Assembly (NCBI GenBank): GCA_019112875.1
Contig: DXIO01000014.1
Location: forward strand, 69,301-133,300
Length of the DNA stretch: 64,000 nucleotides
Reading direction: 5' to 3'
Source: Candidatus Aquabacterium excrementipullorum
Lineage (GTDB): Bacteria; Pseudomonadota; Gammaproteobacteria; Burkholderiales; Burkholderiaceae_C
Shown here: piece after piece, positions 39,018 to 44,849 of the stretch
Layout of the letters: the number at the start of each line of letters is the position of its first letter
How positions within the stretch are numbered: the first letter of the stretch is position 1
Translations under genes and position numbers: made by a program
Notes under the pieces: generated by a model
Told to the model about the DNA's origin: nothing
The model's input: only the letters and a program-made list of their open reading frames with translations
The model's database searches: none

Positions 39018-40168
39018 AGCTGTGCGGCCGCGCTCAGCGCATCGGGGCGCTCGCTGACGGGCGCGCGCGGCAGGCGCACGACGAAGGCGGTGGTGTCCTC
39101 GGCCTCTGAAACGTTCACGTCGATGGTGCCTTCATGGGCACGCACGAACTGATGGACGATGTACAGGCCGAGTCCCAGGCCCTTGGCACGCGGCTTGGCC
39201 GGCGCATCGAGGCAGGGCTTGAAGGGCTGGAACAGCTCCGGCAGCTTGTCGGCCGGGATGGTGCCCCGGTTGCTGACCTCCAGCGTGATCATGTGCGCGG
39301 ACCGGCCGTCCAGCGTGACCTTGATGGGGCTGCCGGGCTGGCCGTGCGTCATCGCATTGCCCAGCAGGTTGGTGAGCACCTGCTGCCAGCGGTCCAGGTC
39401 GATGCGGGCATTGGTGTCCCCCAGGGAGGACACCACCAGCCGGCCGGTGTCGCCCGGATCCAGCTCCTGCACCGCCTGCTGGGCCGCCGACGCGAGGTCG
39501 TGGCTGCGCAGCGCCAGGGTGAGCTGCCCGCTGCGGATGCGTGAGAGATCCAGCAACTGGTCGATCATGCGCGCCATGCGGCTGGTGCTGCCCTCCAGCC
39601 GATCGAGCAGTGCGGGGGCGGGCGGCACATGGCCTGCGTCGCGCAGCAGGCGCACGCCGAGCGACATGGCGGTCAGGGGCACGCGCAGATCGTGCGCCAG
39701 CACGGCGACGAACATCTCGTTGAGTTGCAGCGTTTCGCTCAGGCGCGCGTTCTGCAGCCGGATCTGGCGCTGCTGGCGGTACAGGTCGATGAACACATTG
39801 ACCTTGCTGAGCAGCACATGGCTCTCGACCGGCTTGTGCAGGAAATCGACCGCGCCATATTCGTAGCCCTGGAACTGGCGCTGCTGGTCGGCGGCCGCGG
39901 CGGTCACGAACATCAGGGGAATGTGGCGCGTGCTGTCGCGGCCCCGGATCAACTCGGCCAACTCGAAGCCGTCCATCTCGGGCATGTGGACGTCCAGCAA
40001 GGCCACGGCCACCTCGTGCAGCAGCAGCAGTTCCAGGGCCTCGACCCCGGAGGCGGCCTTGATCACGCGCACGCCCGGGCGGGCCAGCAGGGCCTCCATG
40101 GCGAGCAGGTTCTGGACGAGGTCGTCCACCACGAGGACATTGACGTCCAGTTCAGTGTCCGTGTTCAT
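39002..40168 (-). CDS. Cytoplasmic hybrid histidine kinase (REC-HisKA-HATPase)
   Basis: VLVVDD...LLDVHMPEMDG receiver, AHDLRVPL H-box, NLLGNA, GLGLGLYIV. Confidence 0.92.
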   Translation of the reverse strand: MNTDTELDVNVLVVDDLVQNLLAMEALLARPGVRVIKAASGVEALELLLLHEVAVALLDVHMPEMDGFELAELIRGRDSTRHIPLMFVTAAAADQQRQFQGYEYGAVDFLHKPVESHVLLSKVNVFIDLYRQQRQIRLQNARLSETLQLNEMFVAVLAHDLRVPLTAMSLGVRLLRDAGHVPPAPALLDRLEGSTSRMARMIDQLLDLSRIRSGQLTLALRSHDLASAAQQAVQELDPGDTGRLVVSSLGDTNARIDLDRWQQVLTNLLGNAMTHGQPGSPIKVTLDGRSAHMITLEVSNRGTIPADKLPELFQPFKPCLDAPAKPRAKGLGLGLYIVHQFVRAHEGTIDVNVSEAEDTTAFVVRLPRAPVSERPDALSAAAQLVRQP

Positions 40169-40838
40169 CGTGCTTCCTTGTTGCTCGCTCGACCTCAAAA
40201 ATCCGGCACAACGCCGGCGCCATCCGTTCCAGTGGCAGCAGGCGGCTGCCGGGCACCTCGCTGGCCACGGCCGAGGGCATCATGCGCGCCTCGGCGGAGA
40301 CCGGATCTTGCACCCAGACCTGCGCGCCCGCAAGCGCCAGGCCACGGGCCCCGCGCGCGCCATCGCGGCTGGCGCCCGACAAGACCACGCCCACCAGCGA
40401 CCAGTGCGGCAAGGCCGCGGCGGCCGATTCGAACAGCACGTCGATGGAGGGCCGCGAGAAGTTCACGGCCTCGTCCACCGACAGCGCGAAGTGGGCATTG
40501 GCGGCCTCGTCGGCCTCGACCATCAGGTGGTAGTTGGGGGGCGCCATGTAGATGGTGCCGGCCTGCAGGGTTTCCTTGTCGTCGGGTTCGCGAACCGGCA
40601 AGGCGCACAGCGGCGCAAAGAGTTCCACCAGCAGGCTGGGCTTGTCGGGCGGCAGGTGCAGCACCACGACCACGGCCGCAGGCAGGCCGGCTGGCAGCTG
40701 AGGCAACACCGCCATCAGGGCCTGCACACCGCCGGTGGAGGCGCCGATCATCACCAGGCCGGGCCGTGCCGATGCGGGCGGTGTGGACACGGTCCCTTCG
40801 TGCGACGCCTGGGCGTGCAGGGTGGTCGCGGCGCTCAT
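40152..40838 (-). CDS. cheB: Stand-alone CheB-type methylesterase (no receiver domain)
   Basis: IGASTGG (Ser), VLHLP (His), SRPSIDVLFES, LSGASRDG (Asp). Confidence 0.9.
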   Translation of the reverse strand: MSAATTLHAQASHEGTVSTPPASARPGLVMIGASTGGVQALMAVLPQLPAGLPAAVVVVLHLPPDKPSLLVELFAPLCALPVREPDDKETLQAGTIYMAPPNYHLMVEADEAANAHFALSVDEAVNFSRPSIDVLFESAAAALPHWSLVGVVLSGASRDGARGARGLALAGAQVWVQDPVSAEARMMPSAVASEVPGSRLLPLERMAPALCRIFEVERATRKHDEHGH

Positions 40839-41678: not shown

Positions 41679-44600
41679 TCAGCGTCCCATCCACACGCGG
41701 CACAGCGACACCAGGCGGTCGACGTCGATGGGCTTGGCGATGTAGTCGTCGGCACCGGCGTCCAGGCACTCCTGGCGGTCGTCGGCCATGGCCTTGGCAG
41801 TCAGCGCGATGATGGGTAACTGCGCCCAGCGGGCCTGCTCGCGGATGCGGCGCATGGCGGTCAGGCCGTCCATCTCCGGCATCATGATGTCCATCAGCAC
41901 CAGATCGACCGCTTCGAGCTGATCCAGCTGCGACAGGGCCTCGCGGCCGTCCCGGGCGATCTTGAGCGTGGCGCCCAACGGCTCGAGCACCTTGGACAGG
42001 GCGAAGATGTTGCGGACATCGTCCTCCACCAGCAGGATCACCCGGCCCTCGAAGGCCGCGTCGCGCTGGCGGGCCTGGCGCAGCAGCAGTTGCTGGTCGG
42101 TGGGCAGGGTGCTTTCCACGCTGTGCAGGAACAGCGTCACCTCGTCGAGCAGGCGCTCGGGTGAGCGCGCGCCCTTGACGATGATGGACTTGGAGTGGCG
42201 GCGCAGGCGCTGCTCTTCGTCGCGGGTCAGGGCGCGGCCGGTGTAGACGATCACGGGTGGAAAGCCGTTGTCCAGCCCCTCGGACATCTGGTCGAGCAGG
42301 TCGTGGCCGCTGCCATCGGGCAGGGCCAGGTCCATCACCATGCAATCGAAGGTGCTGCTGCGCAGATGGTCGAGTGCGCCGGCCACGGTGCCGGTCTTGA
42401 CCACCTGCACCTCGTCGTTGCCCAGCAGCAGGCCGATGTTGTCGAGCAGCACGGGGTCGTCCTCGACGACCAGCACGCGCTTGATGCGCGATTGCAGGCG
42501 CTCCTGCAGCTTGCGCACGGCACCCAGGATGTCCTCGCGCGCCACGGGCTTGACGGCGTGGCCGATGGCACCGAGCTGCAGGCTGAGGTTGGTGCGGTCG
42601 TTCAGCGACACCATGTGCACCGGGATGTGGCGGGTGTGCGGCGAGCGCTTGAGCTGCTCGAGCACCGTCAGGCCCGACTGGTCGGGCAGGCCGATGTCCA
42701 GCAGGATGCCGCAGGGCTTGAGCTCGTGGGCCATCGTCAGGGCCTGGTGCCCGGTGGCCGCGATCACGCAGTCGAAATCCAGCTCGCCTACCAGGTCGCA
42801 CAGCACGCGGGCGAACTTCGGGTCGTCTTCCACGGCCAGGATCGTCTTGCGCGCGGAGGTTGCGGCGGCAGGCGCCGGCACGTGCTCCGCCACGAGGGTG
42901 TCACCCTCATGTGGCTGGGTGACGCGTGTCTGGAGCGGCACGGGGGCCGTGACGCTGCGGGCCTGGGCGGGCAGCGCATAGGGGTCTGCAGGTGGGCGCG
43001 AGGGGGCGGCCATGACCGGTGCGGGCAGCACATCCGGTGCCACGGGCGTGGCTGGTGTGAGCGTGCGGGGCAGCACCACCGTGAAGGTGCTGCCTGCGCC
43101 CGGTGCGCTCTGCACGCTGATCTCGCCGCCCAGCAGGTGCGCCAGTTCGCGCGAGATGGACAGGCCCAGCCCTGTGCCGCCGAAGCGGCGGCTGGTGGTG
43201 CCGTCGGCCTGGCGGAAAGCCTCGAAGATGATTTCCTGCTGGTCTTCGGCGATGCCCAGGCCGGTGTCGCGCACCCAGAAGGCCAGGCGTTCGCCCGGCT
43301 CGGCGCGCAGGCCCAGCTCGACCCCGCCATGCGTGGTGAACTTCAGCGCGTTGGACAACAGGTTCTTGAGCACCTGCTCCAGCCGTTGCGTGTCGGTGAT
43401 CAGGGAGGATGGCGACTGCGGTGCGCGCACGGTCTCCAGGCTCAGGCCCTTCTGCGCGGCCATGGGCTTGAACAGCGCCATCAGGCGTTCGAACAGGGCG
43501 TCGGTGGCGACCAGTTCGGGATGAATCTCCACGTGGCCTGCCTCGATCTTGGAGAGGTCCAGGATGTCGTTGATCAGCGTGAGCAGGTCGTTGTTCGCGG
43601 CGTGGATGGTCTGCGCGTAGCTGACCTGCTCATCCGACAGGTTGCCCAGCTTGTTGTCGAACAGGATCTTGGAGAGGATCAGCGAACTGTTGAGCGGGGT
43701 GCGCAGCTCGTGCGACATGTTGGCCAGGAACTCGGACTTGTACTGGCTGGCCTGGGCCAGGCGGCGGGCATTGAGCTCGATGGCCTGGTGGGCCAGCAGC
43801 AGATCACGCTTCTGGCGTTCGAGGTTCTGCGTCTGTTCTTCCAGGCGCACATTGGTCTGCTCCAGCTCGACTTGCTGCTCTTCCAGGCGGGACTGGCTTT
43901 CCTGCAGCACGCGGCTCTGCTCTTCCAGCTCTTCGTTGGAGACGCGCAGTTCTTCCTGCTGCACCTGCAGCTCTTCGCTCTGACGCTGGGTCTGCGCCAG
44001 CAACTCCAGCAGGCGCTCGCGGTACAGCGCGGTGCGCAGGGCCATGCCCACGGTCTCTGACACGGCGGCCATCAGGTCCAGCAGTTCGTCGTCGGGCGTG
44101 TCGGTGTCGGTCAAGGCCACTTCCAGCACGCCGTTGACGCGCTGGTCGGCCGTGAGCGGGCTGCTGACGACACGGCGGGGGCGCAGTTCTGTCAAGCCTG
44201 AGCGCAGCAGCAGGGGCTGCTCCTTCGAATCCGCGACCAGCATGGGGCGTGCATCGCGCGCCACCTGCCCGGTGACGCCCTGGCCCATGCGCAGGGTGGC
44301 GGGCGCGCCGGCGTCCTGAGCATCGTGCGCGCGGGCGGCTTCCAGCACCAGCTTGTCTTCATCGACGCGGTAGACCAGGCCCAGCGGCGCAGCCAGGTAG
44401 GCGCACAGGGCATCCAGCGCGTTCTGCGCGCTCTGGCGCACGGTCTGCTCGCCCAGCAGCGCCTCGGCCACGCGGGCGCGGCCTTGCTGCACCCACATCA
44501 GCCGGCGGATCTGCTGGCGCGATGTCACGGTGGAGCGCACCACCCAGGCCAGGCCCCACAAAGCCAGCACGCCGCAGGCGCGGTTGGTGGCCGCGGCCAT

Positions 44601-44849
44601 CTGGTCCATGCCGGGCGGTGATTGCCAGAAGCCGATCACCATGAAGATGGTGGCGACCACGGCCGCGCCGATCGGCAGATTGGCCCGCGATTGCAGCAGG
44701 CACACACCGACCGGCACCAGGTAGAACACCCACTCGGTCATGCCCAGTGGGGTGAGCAGGTCTATCCACAGGATGGCGGCCAGGGACACCACGATCAAGA
44801 AGCCCACCCAGGCTGGGTCTCGTCGTTCCTTGGGGCGGCTGGCAACCAT
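41679..44849 (-). CDS. Large hybrid histidine kinase (short TM region-GAF-coiled coil-HisKA-HATPase-3xREC)
   Basis: About 4 TM, GAF (GQGVTGQVA), EE-rich coil, [31 protein letters not shown], three receiver domains. Confidence 0.92.

Follow-up and report, generated by a model that had tools for sequence, protein, structure and literature searches.

Introduction

Two described systems come closest to the operon analyzed here, in which a hybrid histidine kinase gene is followed by genes for a CheR-type methyltransferase and a CheB methylesterase: the RsbK/RsbM pair of Bacillus cereus and the cfcABCDE cluster of Pseudomonas putida. According to its open reading frames (ORFs) and their Pfam domains, the operon comprises five tightly coupled genes on the minus strand (38511-44849) of a 64,000-nucleotide stretch of the Candidatus Aquabacterium excrementipullorum genome (4.7 Mb, 68% G+C). 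This stretch, referred to below as the window, corresponds to positions 69301-133300 of contig C98 (C98:69301-133300).

RsbK has the architecture CHASE3-HAMP-GAF-S-helix-HK-REC (S-helix, signalling helix; HK, histidine kinase; REC, receiver), and the RsbM gene lies directly downstream of the kinase gene (PMC4574943). Purified RsbM moves 14C-methyl groups from S-adenosylmethionine (SAM) onto RsbK (PMC4574943), and its site is the S-helix between the GAF domain and the kinase core (PMC4574943; PMC9912610). Methylation of the S-helix is required for sigma-B to stay off, and release from it is thought to run via the receiver domain; the authors stress that RsbM has no cognate methylesterase, and by their count there are 127 RsbK-like kinases in 10 phyla (PMC4574943). 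Published work also gives the RsbK residues H505 and D827. On RsbK, PMC4574943 and PMC12848376 cite Chen et al. 2012 as well as de Been et al. 2011.

The cfcABCDE cluster of P. putida consists of five genes, of which cfcB and cfcC encode a CheR and a CheB (CheR3/CheB3) whose involvement in chemotaxis has been excluded, and the CfcD protein contains a receiver (PMC4951495). CfcA is described as a CHASE3/GAF hybrid kinase required for the diguanylate cyclase CfcR (PMC6849547). A more distant parallel is the KipF-PakF pair of Sphingomonas melonis, in which a CHASE3 hybrid kinase feeds a REC-kinase (PMC10950880).

Chemotaxis receptors are held to be distinguished by adaptation through reversible methylation, and the same enzymes are here apparently aimed at a histidine kinase. 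We consider a Glu/Gln-rich coil of the co-encoded kinase to be the likely target of the operon's CheR and CheB, the whole making up a methyl-accepting two-component module of the RsbK/CfcA type. A first-pass annotation of this DNA had already proposed the coil as the likely target of both enzymes, and synteny, a dedicated CheR clade, one-to-one co-occurrence, enrichment of EE pairs and the RsbM-RsbK precedent now support that proposal. The same annotation knew of no established substrate for a CheR of this type; RsbK has been established as one in B. cereus, so that the idea is not new, and since earlier publications already cover the principle, the family and the Pseudomonas homologue, the discovery is incremental. 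The cassette is nevertheless widespread, with CheR-linked loci in at least 12 phyla, whereas its biochemistry comes from one Gram-positive system lacking a methylesterase. A proteobacterial case with an intact CheB is a good test of whether two-component kinases adapt, and this genome offers three paralogous cassettes with different sensors, as well as a sharply defined, near-invariant candidate site.

Comparison with described systems

Like RsbK, the window kinase combines a GAF domain, a long helix, HisKA and HATPase domains plus a REC at the C-terminus, with a CheR-type gene directly downstream. Among the Bacillota, the kinase-linked CheRs of Paenibacillus and Fredinandcohnia share the clade of the window CheR, and the kinases of these genera carry the same SEELQxQQEELxxxNEELEEQ coil. 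One paralogue in the same genome (on contig C106) has the full RsbK input architecture of CHASE3-HAMP-GAF, and another (on C94) has CHASE3-GAF. The two systems differ in that RsbM is an orphan whereas a co-translated, receiver-less CheB is present here; in that the window kinase, which has no CHASE3 or HAMP, carries four membrane helices and, where RsbK has one receiver, three; and in the partner, which is a REC-kinase here and the REC-PP2C protein RsbY in B. cereus. No sigma-B partner switch lies nearby, Pfam finding no PP2C, STAS or sigma factor among the neighbouring ORFs. A search seeded with a Bacillaceae kinase retrieved 120 other Bacillaceae proteins, B. cereus RsbK not being among them.

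The likeness to the P. putida cfcA/cheR3-type locus, to which the first-pass annotation had pointed, is real (PMC4951495). Both comprise five co-directional genes in the order kinase, CheR, CheB and REC protein, the fifth gene being matched by count only. This comparison was made with Pseudomonas relatives from the genome collection and not with the KT2440 sequence. Two such loci (L048 and L057) encode kinases 49% identical to that of the window, with an EE coil and with CheRs of the same clade, and share the first four genes in order, kinase-CheR-CheB-REC-HisKA-HATPase. The H-box of CfcA itself, ANMSHEL as read from mutagenesis primers, also matches the window kinase. CfcA has a CHASE3 domain, which the window kinase lacks, and signals to the unlinked CfcR; the ORFs scanned in the vicinity of the operon included no GGDEF gene, a search for a CfcR homologue not having been extended to the remainder of the genome. 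The resemblance to KipF-PakF is limited to the two-tier layout: in the alphaproteobacterial loci L002, L004 and L069 the fourth gene (gene 4) encodes a REC-kinase, which in L002 is of the REC-HWE type.

With canonical chemosensory systems the operon shares the two enzyme families, with their motifs intact, and a presumed substrate in the form of a helical coiled coil, rich in Glu/Gln, whose modification-type pairs are seven residues apart. It differs from them in that no methyl-accepting chemotaxis protein (MCP), CheA or CheW is encoded at the locus, the CheB has no N-terminal receiver, the CheR belongs to another clade, the coil lacks the small-residue methylation consensus, and the presumed substrate is the kinase itself.

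The Glu/Gln coil of the kinase

Residue numbers of the Pfam domains of the kinase and of the coil follow the 1075-aa frame that begins at a TTG; the AlphaFold2 (AF2) helices 253-333 and 342-398 are in 1056-aa numbering. The EE/QE-rich coil that the first reading had placed between GAF and HisKA, at about 43795-43995, was confirmed and delimited to an interval inside that range (Table 1). Glu and Gln make up 50% of its residues, compared with 12.6% of the whole kinase, and Leu occupies all 8 of its 8 'd' positions (every seventh residue). With Leu set as 'd', the 'a' positions are taken by Asn, Gln, Ser or Thr; the first three heptads carry EE at b/c, and the later ones E/Q pairs at e/f. The Leu repeat runs without stutter from the coil to the H-box. 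In the AF2 model the two helices named above join GAF to the DHp domain, the monomer being neutral on whether they form one continuous coiled coil, because the break at 334-341 has a predicted local distance difference test (pLDDT) score below 50.

Conservation was assessed in the best 120 of the more than 8000 matches to the kinase (53-100% identity). The coil reached a mean column identity of 0.85 in this set and the H-box region 0.83; the ATPase domain stood at 0.59, the linker following the coil at 0.56 and GAF, the least conserved part of the kinase, at 0.40. The coil is near-invariant and lies at a constant distance from the H-box, and so little variation in the Glu and Gln on its surface is in keeping with a recognition site. 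Across the 4.7-Mb genome the pattern EEL.{4}EEL occurs in only two ORFs, namely the window kinase and one paralogue.

A C-terminal RVW[LM] motif was considered as a docking site for CheR, by analogy with NWETF, and was rejected because kinases without a linked CheR carry RVW[LM] too.

Linkage of CheR to the kinase across genomes

Scanning one genome per species yielded 80 loci with relatives of the kinase, of which 70 had enough flanking DNA to be evaluated; input domains vary within this kinase family. A CheR is present in 39 of the 70 evaluable loci, which come from many phyla, and gene order is conserved: in 37 the CheR lies directly downstream of the kinase, in one it is found 8.8 kb upstream, and in one it is fused to CheB and encoded on the opposite strand. 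A CheB is also encoded in 30 of the 39 CheR-linked loci. The 80 loci together hold 32 stand-alone CheBs, all of them without a receiver domain. The gene 4 product in nearly all CheR-linked loci is a protein whose REC resembles that of the window REC-kinase. Its output varied among the ten examples scanned, being a HisKA, HWE or HisKA_3 core with or without PAS, and once a GGDEF domain.

Linkage to CheR goes together with the composition of the coil. The 95 residues before the H-box contain a median of four EE[L/M] motifs in kinases with a linked CheR and none in those without (Fisher p = 9e-10, uncorrected), and the spacings between EE[LM] motifs in the CheR-linked kinases are multiples of 7 in 191 of 215 cases. 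The CheR-less kinases have the same core, the same three receivers and a homologous coil reading ...QSQQLAGELQTQQRELQQTNEQLEQKAQQL..., in which the SEEL/QEEL/NEEL positions of CheR-linked kinases appear as AGEL/QREL/NEQL.

Two loci hold ORFs that combine these domains. In a Nostoc locus (L011:11596-15867, minus strand) a 1424-aa CheB-CheR-kinase fusion adjoins a coil kinase with few EE pairs, and in one of the Methylococcales (L067:3211-4428, plus strand) a 406-aa ORF matching both CheB and CheR follows a kinase whose coil is a repeat of QQQLQQQTEELQQTNAQMEE.

A cleaner test than EE counts is co-occurrence at the level of whole genomes. In 21 related genomes there are 6 kinases with the full coil and 6 CheRs of the type that scores low against the Pfam CheR model, and these are always adjacent, with three such pairs in genome G000, one in G008 and two in G009. 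The 15 related genomes without a coil kinase are also without the kinase-linked type of CheR, and most of them have chemotaxis CheRs. Genome G009 additionally contains a coil-kinase fragment (G009:C216:210880-211086; residues 3-71 of the query, 61% identity) with an in-frame TAG, which is probably a decayed copy.

The enzymes themselves separate in the same way. The Pfam CheR score of the window CheR is about 123-124 bits, and the window CheR and its two paralogues span 97-129 bits, whereas chemotaxis CheRs in related genomes reach 165-206 bits. With the window CheR as query, kinase-linked CheRs score 175-420 bits and chemotaxis CheRs of the same order 35-72 bits; matches of the kinase-linked type span Bacteroidota, Cyanobacteriota, Bacillota, Actinomycetota, Gemmatimonadota, Chloroflexota, Nitrospirota and others. 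In a maximum-likelihood tree, 43 kinase-linked CheRs form one clade (support 100/98) and 26 canonical CheRs another (100/100). The former covers at least 12 phyla and includes members from Bacillota that have no CheB. The canonical CheRs were sampled from a single order and B. cereus RsbM itself was not included, so that the tree shows the separation of the two groups and not the global position of the kinase-linked clade.

Both window enzymes look active from their sequences. The closest solved relative of the CheR is Bacillus subtilis CheR (5ftw, E = 1e-27), the Salmonella CheR being farther away (E = 5e-14), and its CSTGEE, ATDI and CRNV.IYF motifs align with those of solved CheR. In the CheB, the GASTGG, VVVLHLPP and SGASRDG segments align with the Ser, His and Asp motifs of the Thermotoga and Salmonella catalytic domains (3sft and 1chd), the catalytic triad having been checked by 3sft alignment for the window CheB only. 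A crude regular expression for the CheB triad, applied across the loci, matched 8 of 34; it was too strict and was discarded.

Chemotaxis genes and paralogous cassettes in the genome

The first-pass annotation had emphasized that no MCP, CheA or CheW is encoded in the window. This is true, and extends to all of contig C98, where neither MCPsignal nor CheW/CheA matches were found; it is a property of the locus and not of the organism, which encodes 25 MCPs elsewhere. Genome-wide there are also 5 CheW-domain matches, 4 CheRs and 3 CheBs. A canonical CheR/REC-CheB pair lies on contig C72, and CheA and CheW are encoded elsewhere in the genome. Pentapeptides resembling DWETF, EWTSF or DWESF terminate at least 5 of the 25 MCPs, and C-terminal pentapeptides of this kind are the tether for pentapeptide-dependent CheR.

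The genome contains three cassettes in which a coil kinase is paired with its own CheR, and all three paralogous kinases have an E/Q heptad coil ahead of the H-box. In the second cassette a CHASE3-GAF kinase is split over C94:1315-4323 and C67:1-2090 and is followed by a CheR and a receiver-less CheB. Contig C94 is 4.3 kb long, and the last 210 residues of the kinase, the CheR and the CheB open contig C67; the split probably reflects a break in the assembly inside a family of paralogues. The third cassette (C106:43679-49551) consists of a CHASE3-HAMP-GAF coil kinase, a CheR and a REC-kinase, and has no CheB. Its REC-kinase has NQEL heptads of its own ahead of the H-box.

Candidate targets of CheR and CheB

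Several observations speak against the coil as the methylated site. On a tree of kinase cores, linkage to CheR changes 5-7 times, giving as many independent contrasts; EE content goes the same way in 2-3 of these, the opposite way in 0-1, and shows no difference in 2-3 (sign test p = 0.25-0.5). The association between EE pairs and CheR is thus carried largely by clades and is not significant after phylogenetic correction: shared ancestry inflates the Fisher p and the contrasts are underpowered, so that the raw p is not independent evidence. Three kinases (L008, L026 and L066) have EE-rich coils with no CheR within 8 kb. The window kinase has no match to the MCP consensus [ASTG][ASTG]xx[EQ][EQ]xx[ASTG][ASTG], which is present in 24 of the 25 MCPs of this genome with 1-5 matches each. 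RsbK was compared through its published description. In P. putida, the crinkly phenotype persisted when the other cfc genes were mutated (PMC4951495, citing unpublished results), which would make any effect of methylation there subtle or conditional. In the literature that we searched there is no report of methylation of CfcA or of another proteobacterial kinase of the RsbK/CfcA-type family, nor of demethylation of a kinase by CheB or of the biochemistry of any CheB-containing cassette.

The missing consensus means that recognition must differ from that by classical CheR, which fits a CheR clade with a specificity of its own. The first-pass annotation had argued from the EE/QE sites of MCPs; this analogy is not to be pressed, and the argument should rest on RsbK instead.

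The best-surviving alternative is that the enzymes modify a protein of the relay at some place other than the EE pairs of the coil, such as a receiver, the linker after the coil or the gene 4 product, and that the coil is conserved only as a signalling helix. CheR-less relatives do keep a homologous, well-conserved Q/E coil (AGELQTQQRELQQTNEQLEQ...), so that conservation alone does not require methylation, and the NQEL heptads of the C106 REC-kinase offer another conceivable site; the lack of the MCP consensus and the loss of significance after phylogenetic correction point the same way. We nevertheless regard this alternative as unlikely. The methylated element of RsbK is the S-helix, at exactly the position of the coil (PMC4574943). 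The coils of CheR-less kinases differ from those of CheR-linked ones precisely at the EE pairs, and the output domain of gene 4 varies between loci while the kinase coil stays constant.

Methylation of the coil could also have a purely static role, in which CheR, as has been proposed for RsbM, puts the kinase in a constitutive 'off' or ground state and CheB serves only as a Gln-to-Glu deamidase or for slow reset, with no memory. RsbM indeed works without a methylesterase, release being ascribed to the receiver domain (PMC4574943), and 9 of the 39 CheR-linked loci, as well as the C106 cassette, have no CheB. However, an adjacent CheB is kept in the other 30 and its motifs are intact in the window, which argues for selection on reversal. 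The CheB, having no receiver, offers no obvious route for phospho-feedback, but MCPs are known to show that conformation-dependent substrate choice can give feedback even when no receiver is involved. On balance a static role seems to us very improbable.

Just as hard to sustain is the idea that CheR and CheB act on some of the 25 MCPs encoded elsewhere, the kinase being only co-regulated with the enzymes or controlling them: although both enzymes are bona fide family members and the MCPs have canonical methylation motifs, several with DWETF-like ends, this type of CheR occurs in the 21 genomes only where a coil kinase does, and adjacent to it, while MCPs and canonical CheRs are found in most of them; its clade is separate from that of chemotaxis CheRs, the accompanying CheB is without the receiver by which chemotaxis kinases regulate such enzymes, a canonical CheR/CheB pair is already present on C72, and a chemotaxis role was reportedly absent for the homologues in P. 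putida (PMC4951495).

Proposed mechanism

With the coil of the co-encoded kinase as the probable target, the operon probably works as follows. The membrane helices and GAF, which is likely the cytoplasmic input domain of the kinase, would steer the kinase core via a long helix whose surface bears heptad-spaced EE and E/Q pairs. This helix probably forms a dimeric, parallel coiled coil in which Leu fills the d positions and Asn, Gln or Ser the a positions. The co-translated CheR would use SAM to methylate some of the coil glutamates, most likely in the EE pairs of the first heptads, and the receiver-less CheB would hydrolyse the methyl esters and may deamidate Gln. Neutralisation of charge would alter helix packing and so shift the balance between the on and off states of the kinase. 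Phosphoryl groups would pass to the kinase's own receivers and to the gene 4 REC-kinase, which is likely a second-tier kinase that accepts them from the hybrid kinase, making a two-tier relay. The gene set, the intact enzyme motifs, the conservation and heptad pattern of the coil and its comparative tie to this CheR clade are findings of the present analysis, and for RsbK the literature shows that methylation of the equivalent helix by a CheR-type enzyme represses signalling; the residues modified here, the reversal by CheB and the sign of the effect on kinase activity are inferred.

The first-pass annotation went further and expected reversible methylation to give adaptation or memory directly on the kinase, which is likewise an inference. 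In its strongest form, an RsbM-type CheR and a receiver-less CheB would together give the kinase true adaptation, a methylation memory of earlier stimulus levels, with feedback arising only from conformation-dependent access to the coil and CheB phosphorylation playing no part in it; the three kinases of this genome would share two CheBs, that of C106 being reset in trans. This extension is possible but rather doubtful. If true, the adaptation states of separate sensors (4TM-GAF, with four transmembrane helices, CHASE3-GAF and CHASE3-HAMP-GAF) would be coupled.

Gene structure of the operon

The ORFs and domains of the kinase, CheR and CheB were as first described, and the CheB, as had been noted, consists of the methylesterase domain alone (Table 1). 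The kinase starts at ATG 44849, giving 1056 aa, or alternatively at TTG 44906, giving 1075 aa; a database protein (P0005, 1056 aa) is 100% identical to it. Four hydrophobic helices are present at its N-terminus in the AF2 model (12-32, 39-52, 58-75 and 83-130). The first ~150-157 residues match no Pfam family, and neither CHASE3 nor HAMP was found as an input domain. Each of the three C-terminal RECs carries the DD...D...T/S...K motifs, as read from the translation, and in the AF2 model they correspond to beta-alpha repeats at 669-786, 790-910 and 937-1055.

Table 1. Features of the operon and its surroundings in the window (kinase residues in the 1075-aa frame)
Feature	Position	Strand	Basis and remarks
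Hybrid sensor histidine kinase	41679..44849	-	Translation, Pfam; RsbK/CfcA type, without CHASE3
Kinase GAF domain	44037..44447	-	Residues 154-290; Pfam GAF_2, E = 8.6e-16
Glu/Gln-rich heptad coil	43809..43982	-	Residues 309-366 (58 residues); predicted methyl-accepting signalling helix
Kinase core	43062..43739	-	HisKA with H-box 390-457, HATPase_c 505-615 (Pfam)
Three tandem C-terminal REC domains of the kinase	41685..42845	-	Pfam Response_reg, 3 stretches, 200.7 bits
CheR-type glutamate O-methyltransferase	40835..41674	-	Pfam CheR and CheR_N; RsbM/CfcB (kinase-linked) clade
Receiver-less CheB methylesterase	40152..40838	-	228 aa; Pfam CheB_methylest, residues 29-210 only
REC-HisKA-HATPase protein, gene 4	39002..40168	-	Pfam; CfcD position
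Single-domain receiver, gene 5	38511..38918	-	135 aa; Pfam Response_reg, E = 9e-21
267-aa ORF	37719-38522	+	No Pfam match
Pyridine-nucleotide disulphide oxidoreductase gene	35165-36985	-	
Endonuclease/exonuclease/phosphatase-family gene	44930-45937	+	
BrkB-family membrane protein gene	46672-47628	+	
AsmA-family protein gene	48316-50406	+	

The junctions between the genes are close or overlapping, indicating translational coupling. The kinase stop and the CheR ATG are 4 nt apart, and the CheR stop overlaps the CheB ATG as ATGA. The ATG of gene 4 (40168) lies 17 nt inside the 3' end of CheB and is preceded by a Shine-Dalgarno-like AAGGAAG site. The fifth gene (gene 5) begins 83 nt past the stop of the REC-kinase, with a GGGAGG site upstream, and by its strand and spacing it would belong to the cassette; none of 15 other loci examined has a small REC homologue at this position.

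Neighbouring genes

The four genes of known family that flank the operon (endonuclease-family, BrkB, AsmA and oxidoreductase) have no obvious tie to the relay. None of the 80 related loci has a homologue of the 267-aa ORF next to the cassette; in the window this ORF is convergent with gene 5 and overlaps its 3' end by 12 nt. At the other end of the operon, the endonuclease/exonuclease/phosphatase-family gene is divergent from the kinase and begins ~80 nt from its start.

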